Source: Pseudomonadales bacterium
GTDB taxonomy: Bacteria > Patescibacteriota > Microgenomatia > UBA1400 > PJMF01
Length of the DNA: 64,000 nucleotides
Assembly (NCBI GenBank): GCA_020632265.1
Contig: JACKFW010000001.1
Coordinates: 218,981 to 282,980 of the forward strand
Direction of reading: 5' to 3'
The position numbers were made by a program, and so were the translations under genes. Numbering within the stretch: the first letter of the stretch is position 1; each line of letters starts with the position of its first letter. Below are positions 19,650 to 55,983 of this stretch, piece by piece. The notes beneath the pieces are model-generated. The model was not told where the DNA came from, searched no databases, and worked only from the letters and a program-made list of their open reading frames with translations.

Positions 19650-20762
19650 TTATATTACTTCTAAAATACCGGTATACATTCCCATTGAACAAGAATAAGT
19701 AAATTTACCTCTTTTTGTTGGAGTAAACATAAAAGTTTGTGAATCAGTAGGTTTCAAAAATACAGAAATCCCAAATTCTTTAAAAATAAAAGCCGATGCA
19801 CAAGAATATGTATCATTTGTTGAAACTGTTAATTCGACGGGAACACCAGATTTAACAACTACATAGTTTGGTGAATAGCCAGAACTCAAGGCTTTAATAT
19901 TAATTTTTTGTACTCCATTAGTAATTGAAGCTAAATCTAAGGAATTGGCAAATCTGTCATCCGAAAAAAAATAGGTAATTGGGCTAACTAGCTTGTTTAT
20001 TGTAAATGATGAATCCATAACTATTAAAACTCCATTAATGCTATAAATCGCCATACCAATTAATACAACTGCTGCAAATTTCATAAATTTTTCATGCCAA
20101 CCTTCTGAAAGTTTAGCTGTAGCTATACCAATAATTGCAAATAATGGGGTAGTGCCTAAAATAAATGAGAACATAATTAGAGCACCTAAAAAGGGATTAC
20201 CGGAACTTATTGCAAGAACTTCCATTGCCTGAGTAATTCCACAAGGAATAAATACTGTTAAAAAACCTAGTAAAGCGGGTGCGAAAAGTGCCTTGCTTTT
20301 TGTAGAATTTCTCACAATTTTTTGAATAAATTTTGGTGGCTGAAAAACCATATATCTAAATATTGGATGAACATCTAATAAATTCATGGCTGTACCAAAC
20401 ATAAATAGTGCAGTGAAAACTTGAAAAACTAGTCTTACCCCCAAGCTTAAGGATAATGTTGATCCCAGCCATCCAAGTAAAAAACCTAAAATAACGTGTG
20501 CAACAACCTTTGTCAATAAAAACATACCCACAGGCATCCAATCGAGATCATCAAAAGATTTTAAAGAAAAATTGCTTTGTTGTAATGTTTTTGCATATTT
20601 CTTTCGCTTGTTTTTTTTGTCTTTATCCTTATCTGAAATTGACTCATCAAATTCTCGATCCTTTTGATTGGCAATAATGCTTGTCAATAATCCACCTTGC
20701 ATAGCCAAACAAGACAAACCCCCGGTAGTTAAACCAGTTAAAAATATGACCCATAAATTCAT
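19650..20762 (-). CDS. DsbD_2/UreH-like two-Cys membrane permease fused to a C-terminal cupredoxin-like domain.
   Basis: N-terminus FLTGLTTGGLSCLAMQGGLL. Second Cys in a TM helix: FIPCGITQAMEVL. The C-terminal approximately 90 aa, NYVVVKSGVPVELTVSTNDTYSCASAFIFKEFGISVFLKP...FTYSCSMGMYTGILEVI, has a cupredoxin-like strand pattern with Cys/Met candidate ligands. Confidence 0.45.
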   Translation of the reverse strand: MNLWVIFLTGLTTGGLSCLAMQGGLLTSIIANQKDREFDESISDKDKDKKNKRKKYAKTLQQSNFSLKSFDDLDWMPVGMFLLTKVVAHVILGFLLGWLGSTLSLSLGVRLVFQVFTALFMFGTAMNLLDVHPIFRYMVFQPPKFIQKIVRNSTKSKALFAPALLGFLTVFIPCGITQAMEVLAISSGNPFLGALIMFSFILGTTPLFAIIGIATAKLSEGWHEKFMKFAAVVLIGMAIYSINGVLIVMDSSFTINKLVSPITYFFSDDRFANSLDLASITNGVQKINIKALSSGYSPNYVVVKSGVPVELTVSTNDTYSCASAFIFKEFGISVFLKPTDSQTFMFTPTKRGKFTYSCSMGMYTGILEVI

Positions 20763-20822
20763 AATACTATTCCATTGTAAACTTATTAATTTATATTATC
20801 TTAACACTCTTTGTACTACGCA

Positions 20823-23093
20823 TTATAGTTTAATTTTTCTAAGCCTTAAAGCATTAGATACAACTGAAAGACTTGAAAATGCCATAGCAGCTGATGCTAA
20901 CATAGGATTCAATTGAATGCCCCAAATTGGATAAAGTGCCCCCATTGCTACTGGAATTAACAAAATGTTGTAACCAAATGCCCAAGCTAAATTTTGTTTT
21001 ATATTTTGCATGGTTAATTTGGATAAGTGAATGGCCTGTGGCACCAATGAGATATCACTTCGAAGTAAAGTTATTCCCGCAGATTCAATGGCAACATCTG
21101 TTCCCAAGCCCATTGCTATCCCAACATCGGCTGCAGCAAGAGCTGGAGCATCATTAATACCATCTCCTATGAACCCAACTACATCGCCATTTTTTCTCAA
21201 TTCTTTTACTTTCTGCTCTTTATCATCAGGTAATACTTCAGCAATATACTCTGAAAGTCCAATAGAATTTGCAATGTATTTGGCAGTTCCAGCGTTATCA
21301 CCCGTCATCATAAGTACTTTAACACCGATATCCGACAACTTCTTGATAACATTTCTTGATTCCTCTTTAACCGCATCAGCTATACCCAAAGACAATAAGT
21401 GTATATTATTTACTGATATGTAGGTAACTGTATGTCCATTATTCTGCCAATCTTGTGATTTTTGATCTAGCTTCTTATTTGGTTCAGTACCATTTTCTAC
21501 TAAAAACTTACGATTTCCTACTAAAACATCCTTACCGTCAACAACTCCCATAACTCCTTTTCCCGGAATATCTTTAAAATTTTTAACCTCAAATTTTTGA
21601 CCTTTATTCTTTGCAAAATATTTTACAACTGCATCAGCTAAAGGATGATGTGACTTTGTTTCAACAGACATAATTAAAGATTGTAAATAGGTCTTAAAGT
21701 TCAAATTATCTGGTAAAGTCCAATTAAAAGCTTTTTCGATTAAAGCTAAATCATCTGAAAATTCTGCTTTTTGAACCTCTGGTTTTCCTTTCGTTAAAGT
21801 TCCAGTTTTATCGAAAATTATTGTGGTGATCTTATTAGCTGTCTCCAGTGCCTCAGCATTCTTGATTAAAATACCAATTTGTGCCCCTTTACCAATACCA
21901 ACCATTAAAGATGTGGGTGTCGCCAAACCTAAGGCACATGGACAAGCAATAATTAAAACTGAAATCATACTAACAAGCGCTCTAATTAATTTTGGTTCAG
22001 GACCAAAGAAAAACCATATCCCAAAAGTAAGAATTGATAGCACTATTACTACTGGAACAAAATATGATGACACAACGTCTACTAATTTTTGAATTGGAGG
22101 TCTTGAACCTTGAGCTGATTTAACTAATTGAATAATGTTTGCTAACATAGTATCGGAACCAATTTTCTCAGTTTTCATTTCAAAAGACCCAGATTTATTT
22201 ATAGTCGATCCAATAACTCGATCTCCCTTAATTTTTTCAACTGGCAAACTCTCACCAGTAACCATACTTTCATCTAAATAACTTGTTCCAGAAAACACTA
22301 CTCCGTCAACTGGAACTTTCTCACCTGGCTTAACCAATAAAATGTCTCCAACTTTAAGCTTAGAAATTTGGACATCTTTGACAGTTTTCCCAATAACTAA
22401 ATGTGCAACCTTTGCTTGCAGTCCAATTAACTTTTTGATTGCTAAAGAGGTTTGGCCTTTTGCTCTAGTTTCAAAGTATTTACCAAGTAATATCAGGGTA
22501 ATAATTGTTGCTGATGTTTCAAAATATACATGTGTCTGAATTCCATTACTTTCAAATGAATTCTTAAATATCAAAACTATGATCGAAAAAAAATAAGCCA
22601 CGGAAGTGCCAAGTACGATTAATGTATCCATGTTGGTAGTTTTATTTAGAAAAGCAGACCAAGCACTTTTATAATAATTTTTACCAACCCAAAACTGAAT
22701 TGGTGTTGCAAGTAAAAACATCACCCATGGATTCATTAAAATTTTTGGTGAAAACGGAATCATTGATCCAATCAATAAAAATATGGTTAAAAAAACACTA
22801 AGAAACAATCTATTTTTAAGACTTGCTATTTCAACATTTCTTTCTTTCTCCGCCAAATCGGTGGTGTCTTCAACTCCAATATGAGCTTGATAACCTAGGG
22901 ACTCAACAGCTTTAGATGCTAGAAAAGCATTAAATTTATGTTCATTAATTACGAGAGTGGCTTGCTCATTAGCATAATTTACATTTGATGAGATTACTCC
23001 GTGAGTTTTAGTTAGCTTTCTTTGAACGTTAGAAGCACAACTTGCGCAATGCATACCTGAAACATGAAATGAGATGGTTTTATTGCCCGACAT
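20823..23093 (-). CDS. copA: Copper-translocating P1B-type ATPase CopA.
   Basis: N-terminal [14 protein letters not shown]. Membrane CPC motif [18 protein letters not shown] and [10 protein letters not shown] motifs. Length 756 aa. Confidence 0.9.
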
Positions 23094-23445
23094 ATTTTAA
23101 TGGCTTTTTTTTAAATTTTTCTAAACATCCAGACGCGCAAAAATAATAAATAATATTCATGTATTTATATCTAAATCCTGCTGTTTTTGGTGAAACGCGC
23201 ATTTTGCACACTGGATCGTGTGTTAAAGGAACTAAATCTTTCATATTATAAATAAATTTGTCACTATCTATTTGATTTGAAAATTTATCAAAAATTATTG
23301 CTCTACTAAGATCATTAATTTTAACGAATTTTTTTTCACCAAGTTTATAAAATACCTGTTTGCCATTTTTTTGTTGTACCACAATGCCAGCATCGCGAAG
23401 AATTTGTAAATGTTGACTAACATTAGCCTGAGGTAAATCTAGCAT
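23080..23445 (-). CDS. ArsR/SmtB-family winged-HTH regulator fused to a C-terminal YHS/TRASH metal-binding domain. The annotated ATG at 23445 falls inside the HTH. The reading frame stays open upstream to 23622 and encodes the rest of the ArsR domain, but has no ATG, GTG or TTG.
   Basis: The recognition helix and wing are [28 protein letters not shown]. The YHS motif is [35 protein letters not shown]. My upstream in-frame translation gives ...IFKLQEEILKALAHSRRLEIINLLRESELNVSEIYT before the Met. The gene overlaps the copA start by 14 nt. Confidence 0.6.
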
Positions 23446-23685
23446 AGTATAAATCTCACTTACATTTAACTCAGATTCTCTTAATAAATTAATAATCTCT
23501 AATCTTCTCGAATGAGCAAGAGCTTTTAATATTTCCTCTTGTAGTTTAAAAATTGTATTGTAAATATCATTATTAATATATTCGTATTTTCGAATATAAT
23601 CAAGAGCAATATATTTGGATATCTATTTATTTGAATACTTTAAATTTAATTGTAATTAGTGGAAAAAATAATGTATATTTAAAAC

Positions 23686-23928
23686 ATGCCTAAAATAGAT
23701 TTAAAAGCAATTCTAGTGTGTCCAGAATGCGGAACTAAACAAACTGCAATCATGCCAGTCGAAAATAAGCAGCATTTTTACAAATGTGCCAATGAACAAT
23801 GTGGTGCAAATATTGCGACTAAGGAAAATGATTGCTGTGTTTTTTGTTCACATTCGAACAAATTGTGTCCCGCTAAACAACTAGAACCAAAATTAAAAGA
23901 AGAATCAAAACTGCGTTCGTTGATTTAG
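23686..23928 (+). CDS. Small Cys-rich (8 Cys) zinc-ribbon-like protein, divergent from the ArsR-YHS regulator.
   Basis: CPECG ... CANEQC ... CCVFCS ... CP. Length 80 aa. Confidence 0.4.
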   Translation: MPKIDLKAILVCPECGTKQTAIMPVENKQHFYKCANEQCGANIATKENDCCVFCSHSNKLCPAKQLEPKLKEESKLRSLI

Positions 23929-23946
23929 TGAAGCCTAATTTTTCAA

Positions 23947-24642
23947 CTATTTATAAGGCTTGGCAACTACAATGAAAAGACGAGTTCTAATTAAATTTTT
24001 TGATTTATAAATGATTAATGTATTTTCTTCCTTAGCAATTACATGTGGTAAATACTGAGCATCAGTTTCTCTTGTTTCTATAACGTGATATTTGTAAATT
24101 CCATTGTTATTTCCAGTTAGAATTATTTCGGTTCCAATTTCAATTTCTTCAATGTTTTTAATGATATCTTTAGAACTCAAGTCAGCAATAACTATTGGTT
24201 TATTTTGACCCAAATACCCAGATCCTTTTAGATGGATCAATTCATTTGAAATAACATTTTCAACAAAACTTGTTAGTTCATCACTTTTAACGCTAGCATA
24301 TAAATCTAATGCAGGAATTTTAATTTCTTTAGCTTGTACTCCTTCAATATTTGCGTTCATTAAAATTGGAAATGCCTGAAGTGCGTCTGGTCTTTGAGTT
24401 ACTATTATGCTTAATCCTAATCCAATTCCAAGACCAACGCCACTTACCACCAATTTTCTCTTTTCAGCCAATTTATCAAAAAACGAAAAAATTGGAAAAA
24501 ATAAAATAAGAATCAACTTCATTAAAACTTTAGCAATATTTTTGGGCGAAAATAAAGAAATGCTTGGACAAATTTCAAAAATTATGTCACCAGTTCTATC
24601 CTTTTTTATTTTAAGAAGATTTCTTGAATTATATATAATCAT
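23947..24642 (-). CDS. Membrane-anchored sortase-fold-like protein lacking the catalytic His and Cys (possible pseudo-sortase).
   Basis: The by-eye alignment to the class A sortase core rests on three segments. EIKIPALDLY resembles the beta-strand IEIPDADI. IVIADLSS sits where IAGHT carries the catalytic His. TLIIYKS sits where TLITC carries the catalytic Cys. RTRLFIVVA retains the conserved Arg. The N-terminus has hydrophobic anchor segments. Confidence 0.3.
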   Translation of the reverse strand: MIIYNSRNLLKIKKDRTGDIIFEICPSISLFSPKNIAKVLMKLILILFFPIFSFFDKLAEKRKLVVSGVGLGIGLGLSIIVTQRPDALQAFPILMNANIEGVQAKEIKIPALDLYASVKSDELTSFVENVISNELIHLKGSGYLGQNKPIVIADLSSKDIIKNIEEIEIGTEIILTGNNNGIYKYHVIETRETDAQYLPHVIAKEENTLIIYKSKNLIRTRLFIVVAKPYK

Positions 24643-24734
24643 ATTATATCAAAGTAGTATAACAGAAAACTTTTTACTATCTAATAAGAATTTATTCTGA
24701 TATCTTTTATATAATCGTAGATAATATTCAAAGT

Positions 24735-25886
24735 ATGAACAAATTATTAATTAAACTTGGATTTTTTCTTTTAATAGTGTCTGTCTCATGTACAACTGGT
24801 TTTTTTATAAGTCAATATTTTTTTTCAGAAAACTCTGAATTAATTAGTCCTTTTGTTTCGTTACAAGAAAATATTAGCTATCCACTACTCACTTATTCGA
24901 TTAATAATTTAAGAACAAGAACCTATCTACCTAGTAATATCAAAATTGAAAAATTAATATCAAAAGAAGATAAATTCGATTCTTATCTTTTTTCATATAT
25001 CACTCAAGGAAAAAGAATGACAGGACAACTGAATATTCCTGATATTATCACCGCTTCTCCGCTTCAAAAACATTCGGTAATAATTATGATTCGTGGATAT
25101 GTGCCAGAGGAAATTTACACCACCGGGGTTGGCACCAAATCTGCCGCTGCTGAATTAGCCAATAATGGATTTATCACAATCGCCCCTGACTTTTTTGGTT
25201 ATGGAGAAAGTGATCCAGAACCCAACGATAGTTGGCAAACTAGATTTGAAAAACCAATTTTAATTATTGAATTAATTAAATCACTGGAACAAAATGGCAT
25301 TCCTAGAGATTTGTCTGAAAATACAATTTCAAATGACCAAAATCTTAAAGTTGATAACATAGGAATATGGGCACACAGCAATGGAGGCCAAATTGCTCTG
25401 GAAACATTGGAAATTCTTGATCAAAAAATTCCAACAACCCTTTGGGCGCCAGTAACTGCACCATTTCCATACTCTGTGCTTTACTTTGGGGATGAGCTTG
25501 AGGACGAAGGAAAGGAACAGAGAAAATGGATATCTATGTTTGAAGAAAAGTATGATGCTTTTGATTTTTCTTTAACAAAACATTTGAACTTTTTGCAAGG
25601 CCCAATTCAAATCCAGCATGGAGATGCTGATGACGCAGCTCTAATTTATTGGAGCCAAGAATTTATAAATAAAATTAATCTTGAAAATAAAAGAAGAGAA
25701 AAACTTTCTTTAGAATTAGAATCAATTAAAAATTCAAGCTCTAGCACTAAAAAAAAATCAATGCAAAATTTAGAAGAGATTGAAATTTCTTTACAAAAGT
25801 ATCCTGACACCAACCACAACATGATTCCTAGCTGGAACAAAGCAATCGCGAAAGATATACAATTTTTTAATAAATACCTCAATTAA
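24735..25886 (+). CDS. Secreted or membrane-anchored alpha/beta-hydrolase-fold protein (serine hydrolase).
   Basis: N-terminal signal/TM. Nucleophile elbow GIWAHSNGGQIA. HGDAD lies near the C-terminus as a candidate catalytic His. Confidence 0.5.
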   Translation: MNKLLIKLGFFLLIVSVSCTTGFFISQYFFSENSELISPFVSLQENISYPLLTYSINNLRTRTYLPSNIKIEKLISKEDKFDSYLFSYITQGKRMTGQLNIPDIITASPLQKHSVIIMIRGYVPEEIYTTGVGTKSAAAELANNGFITIAPDFFGYGESDPEPNDSWQTRFEKPILIIELIKSLEQNGIPRDLSENTISNDQNLKVDNIGIWAHSNGGQIALETLEILDQKIPTTLWAPVTAPFPYSVLYFGDELEDEGKEQRKWISMFEEKYDAFDFSLTKHLNFLQGPIQIQHGDADDAALIYWSQEFINKINLENKRREKLSLELESIKNSSSSTKKKSMQNLEEIEISLQKYPDTNHNMIPSWNKAIAKDIQFFNKYLN

Positions 25887-25920
25887 ATGAGGGTCTAAAT
25901 TAACAAAAACTTTATGGCAA

Positions 25921-27372
25921 TTACCACCATCTTATAGTTTGTTCTCTCTTAGGACCGGTGGTTACAACTAGTAACTTCACATTCAAACATTGAGTAATAA
26001 ATGCTAAATACTGAAGTGCCTCCTTAGGCAAATCTCCAATAGTATTCGTATTCTGAGTTTTTGCACCATCCCAGGCAGGTAATTCCAAATATTCCGGTTT
26101 TACCTTGTTTAAATATTCTTGATCTGGCCTGTATCCAACCTCTTTACCACTTATTTTATAACCAATACATACTTTTACTGGAATATCTGAATAGGCAATA
26201 TCTAAATGTGTGGCTGCTAAATATTCAACTCTCCCTACTTTAAATAAATATGACATCATTGGTAAATCAATATAAGCAATATCCCTAGGTCTTTTAGTTG
26301 TGGCTCCATATTCATTAGCATCTTCGCGAATTCTATGAGCAAGACTACCTTTCATTGCCGTTGGTAGGACTCTTGAACCTACACTTGAAGAATAAGTGGC
26401 TTTAATAGTTGCAATCTTAACTGCAATATTATTATGATCAACCACACCTTCGGTTGATGAAAAAATACCATCAAAACCACAGTTTGACGCAGTAACATCA
26501 GGGTATACTCCCCACCTTTTATCTAAACCTAAAGCTTGAGCTTTTTCAAATACAACTGGAGAGTCTGAATTCCAGGACTTTTCCATTAAGTTATAAGTGG
26601 AAGCAACTAAAGGTTTAATCACTTTTCTTGATTCTTCCAATCTAGCCAGCATTTTATTTAAGGAACCAACTTTAATATTACTTTTGCCTAATCTTGGAAC
26701 ATCCACCGAACTTAAAGTATAACCAAATCCTTTTACTAATAATTGATAATGCTTGTAGTGTTTAGAAAATTTTTCTTTCCAATTTTTGGAAACAAGATCT
26801 CTTATTCTTAATGGATTGCGATAAATAACATCTGCATACGCTGGTGAAATACCTCTACCTGTGGCCCCTTTACTACCAGAAGTTTTGTTTTTAAGTACAG
26901 CTTCAAATGCTCGATGAGTATCTAAACATAAAAATGCCATTTCATCGATTACTAATGTTGAAGGTAATTTTTTCTTGCCAATTGCTAACTTAGATTCTTC
27001 TATTTCTGCCACTAAATCTTCGGGATGCAAAACCATTTCTTTTCCTAATACAGCGGTGCAACCTTTTTGTAAAACCCCAGCCCCTAATTGATGAAGTGCA
27101 ATTCTCACATCACCAATTTCAACAGTATGTCCAGCATTTGAACCACCGTTATCTCGATAATGTAATACTTTTTTGTAGTTTTTGAGAAAATCAGCTGTCA
27201 ATTCATCTGCAATTCTTCCTTTTCCTTCATCGCCCAACATTCCTCCCAAAATTGCAACGGAATTTTTTCTTTTACTGCTTACTAACAAGGGATTTTTATT
27301 TAATTTTTTGTTAATTTTATATAAATTGCCTCTCTTGTAAACCTCATTGTATATATTTTTAAAATCATTCAT
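25921..27372 (-). CDS. purA: Adenylosuccinate synthetase PurA, with an approximately 35-aa N-terminal extension.
   Basis: GDEGKGRIAD P-loop and GGSNAGHTV motifs. Length 483 aa. Confidence 0.9.
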   Translation of the reverse strand: MNDFKNIYNEVYKRGNLYKINKKLNKNPLLVSSKRKNSVAILGGMLGDEGKGRIADELTADFLKNYKKVLHYRDNGGSNAGHTVEIGDVRIALHQLGAGVLQKGCTAVLGKEMVLHPEDLVAEIEESKLAIGKKKLPSTLVIDEMAFLCLDTHRAFEAVLKNKTSGSKGATGRGISPAYADVIYRNPLRIRDLVSKNWKEKFSKHYKHYQLLVKGFGYTLSSVDVPRLGKSNIKVGSLNKMLARLEESRKVIKPLVASTYNLMEKSWNSDSPVVFEKAQALGLDKRWGVYPDVTASNCGFDGIFSSTEGVVDHNNIAVKIATIKATYSSSVGSRVLPTAMKGSLAHRIREDANEYGATTKRPRDIAYIDLPMMSYLFKVGRVEYLAATHLDIAYSDIPVKVCIGYKISGKEVGYRPDQEYLNKVKPEYLELPAWDGAKTQNTNTIGDLPKEALQYLAFITQCLNVKLLVVTTGPKREQTIRWW

Positions 27373-43501: not shown

Positions 43502-44200
43502 TTAATTCCAATATTCAGGATATTCATTTAGAATATTATTAATTTCTTCGTTATCTGCATTTGGAATTAATGGTAAATAATTGTGCAAATGAATTTTATC
43601 CTGAGCAAATAATATCACAACTTTATTAATAAATTTTTGAATTATTTTAACATTATCGATATTTTTAATACAAATTAGATTATCAATCAAAGAATTTGAA
43701 TGTTGGCTACTTAAATCAGATTGCCGATTTATTCTAATATTGAGATTTCCTAAATTAAATTTTTTTTGGAAGAACATTTTTTTGGCAACTGTTACACTTT
43801 TTATAGCTTCTAAAGGAAGTAAAGTAATTTTATAACTAAGCGGAAACTTCGTAGTAATATTGATAATTTTGTCAGAACTAATAATACATATATTCTTCAT
43901 CCAAATAGATTTCAACCACCACCATCCCAAAAATAAAATAAGCGAAGAAATCGCTGTGATAAATAGATTCACTGCTTCTAAATTTTTGATTATAAAATAT
44001 TTACTCAGTACCTTCACAAAATAATATCCAAAATTTAAAAATATAAACGAGAAAAAAAACAATAATGCTCTTTTTAAATTCAAATAAGCTTTGCTTTGCC
44101 TAAATACATATAAGATTGACTCATTTTCATATTGATAGGGAAAATTATAACTGTATGGAAAACTAAATGATTCAGTTAAAATAATATTTTTCTTTTTCAT
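43502..44200 (-). CDS. Membrane protein with two N-terminal TM helices and a possible bacterial PH-like (YdbS/YdbT-type) domain.
   Basis: Hydrophobic segments LLFFFSFIFLNFGYYFV and ITAISSLILFLGWWWL are followed by a soluble domain. The start is 1 nt after the stop of the helicase-nuclease gene. Confidence 0.3.
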   Translation of the reverse strand: MKKKNIILTESFSFPYSYNFPYQYENESILYVFRQSKAYLNLKRALLFFFSFIFLNFGYYFVKVLSKYFIIKNLEAVNLFITAISSLILFLGWWWLKSIWMKNICIISSDKIINITTKFPLSYKITLLPLEAIKSVTVAKKMFFQKKFNLGNLNIRINRQSDLSSQHSNSLIDNLICIKNIDNVKIIQKFINKVVILFAQDKIHLHNYLPLIPNADNEEINNILNEYPEYWN

Positions 44201-44201
44201 A

Positions 44202-47200
44202 TTATTTTTGATTTAAAAAACCTAGCTCCCTGATCTCCCTCATTACTTCAATAATTACGACTTTTAGGTCTTCTACTGCTTGAGTTGAAATAGTAAATTG
44301 TCTCTGTATGTGCTTTTCGTCACCATTGCTAGAAATTGATGGCTCAACAAAATCAAAAACAGCCTGAGCTACATTGTATTTAAATGTTTTATCAAGCATA
44401 GTGAGCAATTTATAAAATACTAATTGTCGCTTATACCTACCTCTAATGGTTTCGGGAAGTTTAAGCTCTCTGTCTGAATAATCATCAATATATGTTTTTC
44501 CCTCAATTTGAGCATCTGTTTTTGACTTTCCAGTTTTATAATGAATAATTCTGACCAACTTATTATCAGCATCAATTAAATCTACTCTATCAATTCTTCC
44601 TGATAATTTAATTTCATTTTCAGCATCCATTAAAACTGCTTTACAAAAATTACCACCAAAATACCTTTCAATAAATAATGGTTTTGATACATTGTTTTTA
44701 ATTTCTTCATAATAAAAGCTTAGAACTTTAATGCCTCTTTCTTTTCTTTCTTCAAAATCTAATGACGATAGATTTTCATTTTTTAATGATCTCATAAAAT
44801 CATTTTGAAATTCTGTCAAACTAATAACTTGATTATTAATTGTAAATTTTTTATAAAATTGTTCTAAAGCATAATGAACTGAGGTTCCAAAAGACATAAC
44901 AGGATTTTTTTCTCTAGGAACCCTCAACAATGTATTTAGTATAAATTCATTTTTATCTTTCAAATAATTATTGAGAGCAGTAACTGACATCTTAAATTCG
45001 CTAACCAGCTGTCTAAAAAATTCAATTTCTAAGTCAGTTGAAGAAGTTCCATCAGCTGTCACTTGAAGCATTTCTTCTATTAACTTTTCTGCTTTAACAT
45101 TCAATTTATCTTTATAATTTGAGTCAACAACTGTGATGAAGTCCGCTATTTCTTTTATGAACATACTCATTATGAGTTCACGATTTTTTCCACCAGAAAT
45201 CTTTGTCTGAGGGTAAGAAATAAAAACTTGTTTTTTGGCTCTTGTAATTGCAACGTAGAATAATCGGCGATCATCTTCATTTTTTTCTTTTTTTGAAATA
45301 TCAGTATTAGTTAAAATATGCGTTGGAAGAGGAATCATATCCCGTTTCTGTTTATTTCCCCATTTTTTATCAACACAATTTAAAATAAAAACATACTGCC
45401 ATTCTTGACCTTTGGCCTTATGAACTGTTGACAATTTAATTCGCCCACGAGCAATATTTAACATTTCAGTTTTAAGAACAATGTTATGCTCTCGCATTAT
45501 CTGAATATTCAACAAAAATTTACTTAAATTTAATTCAACATCCTGAGAAAGGGTTTGCTTGATATGAGAGAACAAAGTATTTAATGCAATTAAGTGATTA
45601 ACTTTCGTTGGTTTTGACAAAATATTATCCAAGAATCCAAAGCCACTTTTATCATTTTCTTGTACATCAGGCTTCTGATCGTCCCAATCTTTTGATATAA
45701 AATTTGAATTAATTACTAAACTAAACCACTTATTAAATAAAAGATTGTGACTATTTTTTTGCCAATAAATTAATTTGTCCCTAAATTCAACTATTTTTTC
45801 AAATTCATGCTGATTAAGATCATACTTTTTGTCTAAATTTTCATATTTTGTGCTGATAATCGTAAATATTTCTTCTTTTTCTTTAGCTGCTATTCTCGCA
45901 ACTTTCATGACAGTTAAACTATCTAAATTTATCCAATCAAACATCATTACTTCAAAAATTAAATCCGTTTCACTACCATTGGAAATTCCATTAATAACTT
46001 TAAAAAGTTTTAATAATTGAATAATTAACTTGTCCTTAAGAGCATTGTCCGCACTGTTTGAATCATGAACCACATTCTCTTTTTCCAATATTTCACTAAT
46101 CTCTAAAGAATCGGAATTATCTTTATACAAAACTGCAATTTCTTCTGGATTGACTCCGAGTTTAATTAATTTTTTTATTTCCTCAACTACAAAAAGTTTC
46201 TCTGTAAAAGATGAATTTGCTTCAAAAAGTCTAATTGGATCATTTTGATTGTTTACACTTTTTAATCTTGTTAGTAGCGAAGTTTTAATAGTTTTATCAG
46301 TAAATTGATTTACGGAATTATTTGAAAAATTTATTCCCAACTCATTATTTTCAATTAAATTATGAGCGGCGTCATAAATTATCTGGCTACATCGATATCC
46401 AGTTTGAAGAGTAATTACTTTTGCATTTGGATATTTATTTACAAATCCCAACATATTTTCCACCGAAGCACCTTGAAACCGATAAATTGATTGATGTGGA
46501 TCACCAACGACAAAAATATTAGGCTGATTATCCTGATCCGTGCACAATAAATCCACAATTTTATTTTGAGCAGAATTTGTATCTTGATATTCGTCAACTA
46601 ATACATACTGAAATTTCTCTTTGTAATCTAATAAAATTTCTTCATCTTTTTCGAATATCTCAACTATTAGAGAAATCATATCGTCAAAATCAAATCTTAA
46701 ATTAGCTCTTAATTCTGCTTCATACTTTACATATAGCAAATATAATTCCTTTTGCTTATTTAAATCTTTTGTTCTTTTAATTTTTTGAACTTTTTTTAAA
46801 TCATCAATTTCATTTTCTAAAATTTCTTCTTCAGCATTTAAAATACTTTCAAACTTTTCCAAACTTATATTTTCTCTTTTTAAATTTGAAATTTGAGAAA
46901 TAATATCTTTTAAATAACAGAGTGGATTGTTTAAAGGCTTAAGTATCTGTAAATTTGTCTCAAAAATAATTTTTTCAAATATTTCAAATCTCTCAATATC
47001 TGATAATGGTTTACTTCCTCTATCAATTGGAAACTTGTCCGGATATTGAGCAATTACTTCACTTGCAAAAGAATGAAAAGTACTGATTGCAACGTAGTAA
47101 CCTTCATTACCGATCATTTCAACAATACGCTCCCGCATATTTTTTGCAGCTGCCTCAGTAAAAGTAAGAGCTAAAATATTTGAAGGATCTACATCCTGAA

Positions 47201-53740: not shown

Positions 53741-54760
53741 TTACAACTTTCTAAATTTTCTTCTCAGCATTTCAAAATAATAAGTTAAATGATAAAGAGG
53801 TGATAAAGAAATATCATGAGAAGGCAAATATTTAACTTCTTCGCCTCCAAATCCACGCTTGAATAATGAAACTCCCGTAAAACGATGATTTAGCTCGTTT
53901 TCAGGCGCAATTCCCCAAAAATTATACTTTATACACCCCCTTCTTTTAGCCTCTTTAATTGCAGCCCACTGACAAGCGTAACTACCTGCATACTTTCCAT
54001 TTTCAGGAGTAGAAATACCGTAATGATATACGGCTTCTTTATTATAAAAAATTATAAATGCTGTTGCTAACAATCTATTATTCAACTTTGAATGTATCAT
54101 CAGCACCTGATCATCTTCCAAAAATGAGATAAATTGATTATATAAAAAATCATATGTAAACGGTACAAACCCATGTTTTTTAGCAAGCTTGATTTGAAGA
54201 TCATAAAATTCTTTAATATCATTCTTATCTTTGGAAAAATTGATACTGATGCCTTCTCTATCAGATTTATTGATTGAATAACGCGTATTTTTCCTCATTT
54301 GCTTTAAAATTTCATCTTCAGAATTTTCTAAATTTAGTTGTAGAGTTAAATCTGCAGTCAAATGCATTTGTGAGGTTTTTGCACCAATTTTAGCAACAGT
54401 ATTTCTAAGTTCAATTGAATCTATTGCTTGAGGTCTAAATCTAATAAAGATAGCTCCTTTTTCTTTGGCAATTAATTTGATTTTTTCAAATACAAGATTG
54501 ATAAGCTCTTGATTGGTCCAATCAATTAATGGACCACCTGCAATTGAGATGTAAGTACCCCTTTTGGCTTTTTCACAAACAAGTAAAGCCATTCCCAAAG
54601 TAACGTTATTTTTTTGAATCAAAAGCCTGACAACTATCTTTCCCATTCTTTCTTGAAACAAACTCCAGTTCCAAGATTGCAAAAAATTTGCGTTCTTAAA
54701 TAATAAAATATTGCTTTCCCAAACATTTTTATCAGTAATATATAAAAAAGTAATATTCAT
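53741..54760 (-). CDS. FemAB-family (FemX-like) peptidoglycan-precursor aminoacyl/peptidyl transferase (GNAT-fold pair).
   Basis: N-terminal ...NANFLQSWNWSLF is typical of the FemABX start. Length 339 aa and operon context. Confidence 0.6.
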   Translation of the reverse strand: MNITFLYITDKNVWESNILLFKNANFLQSWNWSLFQERMGKIVVRLLIQKNNVTLGMALLVCEKAKRGTYISIAGGPLIDWTNQELINLVFEKIKLIAKEKGAIFIRFRPQAIDSIELRNTVAKIGAKTSQMHLTADLTLQLNLENSEDEILKQMRKNTRYSINKSDREGISINFSKDKNDIKEFYDLQIKLAKKHGFVPFTYDFLYNQFISFLEDDQVLMIHSKLNNRLLATAFIIFYNKEAVYHYGISTPENGKYAGSYACQWAAIKEAKRRGCIKYNFWGIAPENELNHRFTGVSLFKRGFGGEEVKYLPSHDISLSPLYHLTYYFEMLRRKFRKL

Positions 54761-54762
54761 AT

Positions 54763-55983
54763 TTAAAAATCGTTCAATGTTTTTATAATTTGGTTTGCCT
54801 GTTTGATTGATAAATTGATATGGGTTGGTAGATTTATAATCTCGCTTGAAAGTTTCTCAGCATTAGGGGCCAGTCCTTTCGTATAAAATGAGTCGCATTG
54901 ATATCTCCCACAGTCTACAGGATTTCGATACCATCTATCAGATAAAAATATTTTATTTTTCTTCATTAATTGAATAAATTTTTCAACTTCCTGAATTCTA
55001 ATTGAGAACCTAAGATTACTACCAAATAAGACATCCTCTTTTGAATTTATTATGCTAATTTTTTTATTAACAATTTTCTCAAGATACAAATTTGCAATTT
55101 TTCTTCGATGAATTATTTGCGATTCTAAATTACCTAAGGAAACTAGTGCTAAAGTGGAATAAGCTGGAGACATAGTACAAATATTTTTTATTTGACTAAT
55201 TGTTGGTGAGGTTATTAACTTTAAGGTTTTGGCTAATTTAATTATTAATTTTCCAGCCCAAACGTCATATAAATTGCGACCTAAATATGTCACTATTGGA
55301 TAAATTAAATCAATAAATAAATATTTTTTTGTTTGCTGAGATATTATGATTTCCTGAATTACTTTTAATTGATTATTCGTGAGTTCTTTAAAAACAACAG
55401 CTCCACCGGAAATTGAATCGATGACTTTATCTCTTCCAAATGAAAAAATTACCACATCGGCATTGTATCCCAATGACTGACCCAAACTATCTCTACCTCC
55501 AATTGATTGTGCCAAATCTTCAATCAATAATAAATTGTTTTTTTTACACCAAGCACTGATTTTTCCGATTTCTGCTGGAATTCCTAAGCTATGCTGAACT
55601 AACACCACCTTCGAATCTGGATTAGACTTAAAACTTGCTTGTAAAGTTTGAACGGTTAAATTTGTTGAATTTTCTGCAATATCCACATAAACTGGTTCAC
55701 CCCCGCCTCTCTTAATTCCTTCTTCAACGGCATAACAAGTAAAGGCTTGAGTTAAAATTTTTATGCGATCTTGAGATTTTTTTTGAGCTGATAAAACTCG
55801 AATGGAGAATTCAATTGCATCACGACCTTTATAAAATAAAAATGATTTGCCATGATAATTATCTTCTAAATATTGATTCAATTTTTGATGATCCTCGCTT
55901 GCGGAAACAAAAATCTGACTCAATGCGGTCAGTGCAAATTTAAATGTATAATTCGAACCCAAACTATTAAAAATTGATTTCAT
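54763..55983 (-). CDS. DegT/DnrJ/EryC1/StrS-family PLP-dependent sugar aminotransferase-like protein.
   Basis: KILTQAFTCYAVEEGIKRGGGEPVYVDI, LLLIEDLAQSIGG, and a Lys in VVIFSFGRDKVIDSISGGAVVF (compare SFHxxKxxxxGEGG). Confidence 0.6.
   Translation of the reverse strand: MKSIFNSLGSNYTFKFALTALSQIFVSASEDHQKLNQYLEDNYHGKSFLFYKGRDAIEFSIRVLSAQKKSQDRIKILTQAFTCYAVEEGIKRGGGEPVYVDIAENSTNLTVQTLQASFKSNPDSKVVLVQHSLGIPAEIGKISAWCKKNNLLLIEDLAQSIGGRDSLGQSLGYNADVVIFSFGRDKVIDSISGGAVVFKELTNNQLKVIQEIIISQQTKKYLFIDLIYPIVTYLGRNLYDVWAGKLIIKLAKTLKLITSPTISQIKNICTMSPAYSTLALVSLGNLESQIIHRRKIANLYLEKIVNKKISIINSKEDVLFGSNLRFSIRIQEVEKFIQLMKKNKIFLSDRWYRNPVDCGRYQCDSFYTKGLAPNAEKLSSEIINLPTHINLSIKQANQIIKTLNDF

Follow-up and report, generated by a model that had tools for sequence, protein, structure and literature searches.

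The 64,000-nucleotide (nt) stretch of DNA analyzed in this study, hereafter the window, comes from a genome deposited as Pseudomonadales bacterium (GenBank assembly GCA_020632265.1, contig JACKFW010000001.1, positions 218,981 to 282,980 of the forward strand). Its minus strand carries a regulator gene that joins an ArsR-type winged-helix domain to a YHS domain and is followed by copA (20823..23093, minus strand), which encodes a 756-amino-acid (aa) P-type Cu ATPase with HMA and E1-E2_ATPase domains and is the presumed target of the repressor. The regulator is annotated as an open reading frame (ORF) of 121 aa (23080-23445, minus strand) that begins at an ATG (23443..23445). In the same frame, however, the codons preceding the annotated Met read ISKYIALDYIRKYEYINNDIYNTIFKLQEEILKALAHSRRLEIINLLRESELNVSEIYT, and the frame stays open for 59 sense codons back to a TAG (23623..23625, minus strand), without a single in-frame ATG, GTG or TTG when these 59 codons are read one by one. 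The annotated Met is residue 60 of the resulting 180-aa extended frame and lies in the middle of the winged-helix domain. Alignments, an AlphaFold2 model and profile scores delimit a full-length frame of 161 codons (23080..23565, minus strand), which runs from an ATT (23563..23565, minus strand) at the ancestral start position to the stop codon at 23082-23080; in this protein the annotated Met is Met41, the invariant Met of an MLDLPQAN motif, as seen in the ORF listing, the alignment and the model. An original prediction, made from the bare sequence, had placed the ATG at 23445 inside the winged-helix domain, had described 59 further open codons up to the TAG at 23623-23625 with no ATG, GTG or TTG among them, had taken these codons to encode the missing helices of the domain, and had given the overlap between the regulator and copA as 14 nt; domain models, translation, codon reading, the structural model described below and ORF coordinates bear out all of these points.

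The startless extension of the regulator exceeds chance expectation, because 59 codons stands out among the approximately 54 real genes of the window and because the N-terminus that it encodes matches that of intact orthologues. When every stop-to-stop frame of at least 90 codons in the 64 kb was scanned, startless 5' extensions spanned 0-24 codons in all but two genes, the regulator and the gene at 53741-54856, where the extension is 32 codons long. The latter was considered as a second case of a non-canonical start and rejected, since its extension is explained by overlap with the gene upstream. No further gene requiring a non-canonical start was found among the approximately 54 genes of the window, and, judged within the available 64 kb, such starts are not a genome-wide habit.

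The domain structure of the extended frame agrees with the fusion of HTH_20 and YHS domains given in the original prediction, as both were matched by Pfam models. The DNA-binding part matched HTH_5 (PF01022; residues 38-81 of the 180-aa frame, 57.2 bits against a cutoff of 22), HTH_20 (PF12840; residues 35-83, 36.3 bits against a cutoff of 27) and the NCBIfam model HTH_metalloreg (NF033788, 'metalloregulator ArsR/SmtB'; residues 29-100, 84.9 bits against a cutoff of 55), and these ArsR-family scores depend on the inclusion of the startless codons upstream. By the NCBIfam match the ArsR/SmtB winged-helix domain occupies 23323..23538 (minus strand). The YHS domain (PF04945; residues 136-180 of the extended frame, 44.1 bits against a cutoff of 30.3) occupies 23083..23217 (minus strand) as a YHS/TRASH metal-binding domain containing Cys120, Cys143 and Cys147 (C-X22-C-X3-C). 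These are the only three Cys of the protein and are invariant columns in a 60-sequence alignment; a Cys-X19-22-Cys-X3-Cys spacing of the YHS/TRASH motif was reportedly described by Ettema and colleagues in 2003. The 161-residue protein read from the ATT was modeled with AlphaFold2 on the same 60-sequence alignment. The model had a mean predicted local distance difference test score of 84.1 and a predicted template modeling score (TM-score) of 0.72, with helices at residues 2-16, 19-27, 35-42 and 46-58, followed by a beta hairpin (62-75), a further helix (79-95) and a low-confidence linker leading to a YHS domain at approximately 113-159. In a Foldseek search, the first 83-96 residues of the model matched SmtB (8qkf), CzrA (1r1u), HlyU (4k2e) and Rv0081 with target-normalized TM-scores of 0.80-0.86, and with root-mean-square deviations of 1.0-2.1 for SmtB, CzrA and HlyU. 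By sequence and predicted fold, the regulator is thus a clear member of the ArsR/SmtB family. The structure search found no solved structure holding both an ArsR and a YHS domain.

Neither the classical alpha3N Cys site nor the alpha5 His/Asp/Glu site for metal binding was identified in the DNA-binding domain: there is no Cys in residues 1-119, and His occurs only at residues 18, 52 and 116. Such sites typify canonical metal sensors and are not required for ArsR/SmtB membership. With a DNA-binding domain devoid of Cys and all three Cys in the YHS domain, the role of metal sensor has evidently passed to the latter. Binding of Cu(I) by this domain is suggested by analogy with archaeal CopR and by adjacency to copA, as a P-type ATPase lies directly downstream of the regulator in 60 of 72 orthologous loci.

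The shortened product that the annotation implies is a doubtful repressor. Met41 sits at the end of helix alpha3 (residues 35-42 of the model), and the dimer interface of ArsR-family proteins is built from alpha1 and alpha5. Judged from the model, a 121-aa product lacking alpha1 to alpha3 could not form an ArsR fold or a dimer interface and could not act as a DNA-binding repressor. One potential explanation is that translation does begin at the internal AUG (23445) and yields a 121-aa protein in which the YHS domain alone binds copper, much as in CopM and CopT, TRASH proteins that stand alone in archaeal cop clusters; this translation would, in addition, feed ribosomes into the overlapping start of copA. 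The internal AUG is the first canonical start in frame and the one picked by gene callers, the YHS domain that follows it is intact with its three Cys, and the 14-nt overlap with copA would suit such coupling. Nevertheless, both the short protein and its coupling to copA are considered very unlikely: the Met is invariant as an internal residue in all orthologues and is therefore not a new start, no Shine-Dalgarno (SD) motif precedes it, it lies 120 nt inside the mRNA, and the leftover half of the winged-helix domain (residues 41-95) is probably unfolded.

The position of the ancestral start is given by the orthologues. Searching 5.8 billion proteins gave 682 relatives, of which the best 120 were examined by length and domains. 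With one exception these 120 are 155-186 aa long and contain both domains; the exception and sole short entry is the window's own product, P0001 (MCB9812985.1, 121 aa, 100% identical, named 'YHS domain-containing protein'). The next-best protein match to the regulator has 70% identity, and the named relatives are Patescibacteria (Pacebacteria, Woesebacteria and Beckwithbacteria). The original prediction had regarded the ArsR-YHS fusion as notable in itself; with 682 database matches, mostly of approximately 160 aa and from Patescibacteria, the architecture instead proves common, and these matches indicate that it is widespread in that phylum. It is also already catalogued, with some entries named 'ArsR family regulator/YHS domain-containing protein', while literature searches found no experimental work on the ArsR-YHS/copA system of Patescibacteria. 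It is also important to note that many Patescibacteria records, MCB9812985.1 among them, go under the label 'Pseudomonadales bacterium' or 'Gammaproteobacteria'. The taxonomy of these labels appears to be at fault, as gene content and closest relatives point to Pacebacteria or Patescibacteria.

Aligned orthologues start with MYNQxFKLQEE, where the window reads D-I-YNTIFKLQEE. For 80 species-representative loci that were retrieved, 72 of them scoreable, the codon lying 40 codons before the invariant Met of MLDLPQAN was read. It was ATG in 70 species and GTG in one (L064), the remaining species (L084) having an ATG two codons further up, and ATT was observed at this position in none of the 72. 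These 72 orthologues, all of them Patescibacteria ArsR-YHS proteins of approximately 160 aa and in most cases followed by copA, fix the position of the true start at exactly 40 codons before the annotated Met. In the nearest syntenic relatives, which keep the gene order of the window (hydrolase, sortase, small divergent gene, regulator, copA), TATGTA stands in place of the TATTTA of the window, a difference of one G-to-T substitution at the third base of the start codon (window position 23563). A 5-nt insertion after a retained ATG (23570) was considered in place of a point mutation and rejected, as TATGTA and TATTTA align without gaps. Comparison with orthologues therefore supports the core of the original prediction, that the true N-terminus lies upstream and lacks a canonical start: the start codons sit 40 codons upstream, and no orthologue begins at the internal Met. 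The prediction had named both ATT and ATA codons as candidate starts, and only ATT stands, since the only upstream ATA precedes the promoter.

A sequencing or assembly error, one of the explanations originally offered, would make the missing start an artifact. Nothing was found in favor of this explanation, and it can be set aside with near certainty because five independent assemblies carry the identical ATT. The 121-aa product was found on contigs from five sequencing runs (SRR12358676, SRR28385526, SRR28385529, SRR30635583 and SRR776449), and the corresponding Logan assemblies (loci L001-L005), compared with window positions 20080-26445, matched it with 100.000% identity over 1.3-6.4 kb, with the ATT and all of the intergenic region among the identical bases. 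No corrected sequence with an ATG turned up in these assemblies, and no ATG allele at 90% identity or above was found among the 5.8 billion proteins. A search of metagenome contigs of the Joint Genome Institute for the pattern AATAATGATATNTACAAT... recovered neither the ATG nor the ATT allele. As judged from these identities, the same clone recurs across datasets and all six copies belong to it. Since all six copies represent one clone and no relative exceeds 70% identity, these sequences offer no basis for dating the mutation.

No decay is seen in the startless N-terminus. Sequence decay of the regulator was considered and rejected on the basis of pairwise identities and of leave-one-out scores from hidden Markov models: the full-length protein scored 247.2 bits against the orthologue profile, within the leave-one-out range of the orthologues (243.8-291.6) and close to its clade-mates L007 and L048 (247.4 and 248.4 bits against the same profile). 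No secondary lesions were found, meaning no stops, no frameshifts and no changes at 36 invariant columns.

The region upstream of the start is also conserved. In 62 of 71 orthologous loci the start codon directly follows GAAT (GAAT|ATG), and in 59 of 71 (among L006-L085) a palindrome, ATATTC-N5-9-GAAT|AT(G), takes in the A and T of the start codon; the same palindrome lies within -60..+3 in 67 of 71. A TTGACA-like box is found approximately 30 nt upstream in the orthologues, together with a -10-like hexamer ending 6-7 nt before the ATG, and none of the 71 loci has an SD-like motif within 20 nt upstream. This family-wide layout suggests leaderless-mRNA geometry, with an operator that would cover both the promoter and the first codon. 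In the subclade of the window, the palindrome lies between the -35 and -10 boxes and the distance from the -10 box to the start is 7-29 nt (12-29 nt in the closest relatives). The window itself has a putative sigma-70-type promoter (TTGATT-17-TATATT, 23575..23603, minus strand), in which the -35 hexamer TTGATT (23603-23598) is followed by a 17-nt spacer, the -10 hexamer TATATT (23580-23575), 9 nt, and then the ATT. The assignment of this promoter is based on its conserved position in relatives and not on a consensus scan. Lying between the two boxes and overlapping them is a putative operator, the perfect palindrome ATATTCG-N6-CGAATAT (23578..23597, no strand), to which binding is predicted. 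Operator-like palindromes occur twice in the window against 0.12 expected. The second, ATATTC-ATTTA-GAATAT, has a 5-nt spacer and lies at 43520-43536 within the 3' end of a minus-strand ORF (43502-44212); it could be a chance occurrence or a second binding site.

With this promoter, the transcript would carry approximately 0-3 leader bases and no SD motif, and the first 30 nt of the message are predicted to be unstructured. Where a leaderless mRNA has its 5'-terminal AUG or GUG, the codon here is ATT. Among the genes of the window, approximately 8 of 54 show an SD-like motif no more than 20 nt from the start, and -10-like hexamers end 6 nt before the start in 7 of 53 against a background of approximately 3, a weak peak. 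This pattern suggests that SD-less and leaderless initiation is common in this genome of 31% G+C; searches of the literature on leaderless translation in Patescibacteria gave nothing specific.

The short leader of the window also contains an out-of-frame ATG (23568..23570, minus strand), 4 nt after the -10 box and opening a 14-codon ORF, and in phase with it a T_TTA_AAC heptamer (23544..23550, minus strand) at which a -1 slip would enter the regulator frame. The original prediction mentioned neither this ATG nor the operator palindrome nor the leaderless-type geometry of the promoter. It is conceivable that translation begins at this ATG (23570-23568) and slips on the heptamer (23550-23544) to give MIFTIQFLN-LQEEILKAL..., as there is an ATG with an open frame and, in the correct phase, a canonical X_XXY_YYZ heptamer, and the N-terminus of the product would be of about the ancestral length. 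We regard this as extremely improbable and the co-occurrence of ATG and heptamer as probably coincidental. The heptamer consists of conserved bases coding for F-K-L and is also present in relatives with a normal ATG, stimulatory structure downstream does not exceed that of shuffled controls (z = 0.33), the ATG lies so close to the -10 box that it is probably upstream of or at the edge of the transcript, and it is absent from relatives, the difference from which is more simply explained by a single G-to-T substitution.

Taken together, the observations are, on balance, probably best explained by a hypomorphic or near-null repressor allele, from which translation of the full-length protein would proceed by weak initiation at AUU only and under which the cop operon would be largely derepressed. 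The cop operon of Patescibacteria would be headed by an autoregulated repressor gene, with the ArsR-YHS regulator first and copA second, and in the window the single G-to-T substitution would have turned the ancestral ATG of this gene into ATT. By analogy with known members of the family, an ArsR-type dimer would sit on the ATATTCG-N6-CGAATAT palindrome overlapping its own promoter, and binding of Cu(I) to the YHS domain would release it. Because the mRNA would lack an SD motif and have a leader of a few bases at most, the choice of start would depend almost wholly on the start codon, and AUU would be expected to give a few per cent or less of ancestral initiation. In Escherichia coli in vivo, AUU gives 1-2% (0.02-3%) of the initiation seen with AUG even with a good ribosome-binding site (10.1101/063800), and infC and pcnB are the only confirmed AUU-initiated genes (PMC5499595, 10.1101/063800). 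In mycobacteria, a 5' AUG or GUG is reported to be enough for robust leaderless translation, and other 5' codons, such as AUU, have not been reported to work (PMC9094748). Full-length repressor would thus be scarce, and the regulator-copA operon largely constitutive.

Several results weigh against weak initiation and derepression. The 40 startless residues alone scored 56.8 bits (orthologue range 51.7-66.7), and residues 2-40 have 77-87% identity to the six closest orthologues, compared to 77-100% among those six. The intact frame is as consistent with a protein that continues to be produced and maintained by selection as with a very recent mutation, and recurrence of the clone in five runs makes clear that the allele can persist. 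The promoter consensus scan found 8 sites against 6.2 in shuffled sequence and, in AT-rich DNA, did not exceed chance. Lastly, AUU may be stronger than assumed here, because in vitro, in cell extracts, AUU mRNAs can reach 28-74% of AUG (PMC5499595). The undamaged frame leaves two possibilities, a recent mutation or continued synthesis from AUU of enough protein for selection to keep the gene, and sequence alone does not separate them.

The rare ATT start and the recent start loss, offered as separate explanations in the original prediction, become opposite ends of the reading favored here, with the codon now identified as ATT at 23565-23563; a fully functional AUU and a complete loss are the two flanks of the hypomorphic allele. 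On the first flank, AUU would be a working and possibly selected weak start, providing repressor at a low but sufficient level for near-normal regulation of the cop operon, as in infC and pcnB. Repressors are needed in few copies per cell, the frame is intact and the N-terminus fully conserved, the allele persists in five runs, AUU initiation is measurable in E. coli, the 5' region is unstructured, and the GTG of L064 shows that non-ATG starts are tolerated in the family. However, ATT was found in none of the 72 other species and is thus not a conserved regulatory device, a compensating SD motif is absent, and the window holds no second non-canonical start; a working start is accordingly a tentative alternative that we consider rather unlikely. 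The stronger proposal that AUU is functional on a nearly leaderless, SD-less mRNA, that the lineage tolerates near-cognate initiation, and that the weak start serves to keep an autorepressor scarce is less probable again and is best described as speculative, and a variant in which function depends on a -1 slip (out-of-frame AUG, U_UUA_AAC) is even less likely. If AUU were functional in this way, a lineage of Patescibacteria with reduced ribosomes and translation factors would tolerate starts that model bacteria do not.

On the other flank, start loss would be complete and recent, leaving no full-length protein, a young pseudogene and a constitutive cop operon, which might be favored in copper-rich water or sludge. 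Complete loss shares the evidence for the hypomorphic allele, and a leaderless-like layout is one in which a start other than AUG or GUG is expected to fail. The gene nevertheless contains no stops, no frameshifts and no changes at the 36 invariant columns, although all six copies are one clone, and outright loss appears improbable.

Other features of the window concern the neighborhood of the operon. Following copA, at 19650-20762 on the minus strand, is a gene for a 370-aa membrane protein with a DsbD_2 transmembrane region and a C-terminal cupredoxin-like domain, which probably belongs to the same copper-handling cluster. The divergent neighbor of the regulator (23686-23928, plus strand) encodes an 80-aa Cys-rich protein that matched the NCBIfam model NF041374, 'GDCCVxC domain-containing (seleno)protein' (61.4 bits, cutoff 40), and gave no Pfam match. 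Its ATG lies exactly 6 nt after the TATATT of a TTGTAA-18-TATATT element, a leaderless geometry. The syntenic relatives L087 and L088 also have a small divergent gene of similar kind (84 aa), and among the 72 species loci only 1 had a GDCCVxC-like motif upstream. A tRNA scan of the 64-kb window found none.

The main practical value of these findings is an annotation correction. The 121-aa entry MCB9812985.1 is a truncated call, and if the gene yields any real product, this is a 161-aa ArsR-YHS regulator; start-codon mutations of this kind escape gene callers that accept ATG, GTG and TTG only. Beyond annotation, the window presents a naturally occurring change from ATG to ATT in the autorepressor gene of a genome-reduced bacterium that has not been cultivated. 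Such an allele offers an uncomplicated way to gauge the stringency of start-codon choice on SD-less or leaderless messages in Patescibacteria, a phylum with a reduced translation apparatus, and to ask whether losing a copper repressor is tolerated or favored in the field. The ATT allele does not overturn current understanding, and the ArsR-YHS/copA operon looks like the standard copper switch of the phylum.

Compared to the ArsR/SmtB repressors SmtB, CzrA and CadC, the protein of the window has the same predicted alpha1-alpha2-alpha3-alphaR-beta-beta-alpha5 fold, its gene has a palindrome (the predicted operator) overlapping its own promoter, and it is the first gene of a metal-efflux operon that is its presumed target. 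It differs in lacking the alpha3N and alpha5 ligands, in carrying its only Cys in a C-terminal YHS/TRASH domain, and in having ATT as start codon. The archaeal CopR proteins of Pyrococcus, Sulfolobus and Thermococcus (PMC7830388) likewise combine, in one polypeptide, a helix-turn-helix domain with a C-terminal TRASH Cys motif, by which CopR senses copper, and are encoded beside copA. However, the DNA-binding domain of CopR is of the Lrp/AsnC type, whereas that of the window is of the ArsR type, so the regulator resembles CopR in outline and is not a member of that group. In addition, CopR assembles into octamers and can both repress and activate (PMC7830388), and its gene is usually divergent from copA, while the regulator of the window is co-directional with copA and overlaps it. 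Leaderless mRNAs, which make up approximately 25% of mycobacterial mRNAs, resemble the predicted messages of most orthologues, where the ATG lies 6-7 nt after a -10-like box and no SD motif is present; in the window, the gap between the -10 box and the start is 9 nt and the codon is AUU rather than AUG or GUG. The infC and pcnB genes of E. coli are similar in that AUU occupies the initiation position of a regulatory or low-abundance protein. The AUU of infC is, however, conserved across species, underlies the autoregulation of initiation factor IF3 and is accompanied by an SD motif, whereas the ATT of the window, a derived point mutation, was seen in 1 of 73 species and lacks an SD motif. By this comparison of sequences, the change at the start codon is an ordinary point mutation, possibly of interest for its effect on regulation, and not a conserved AUU of the infC kind.

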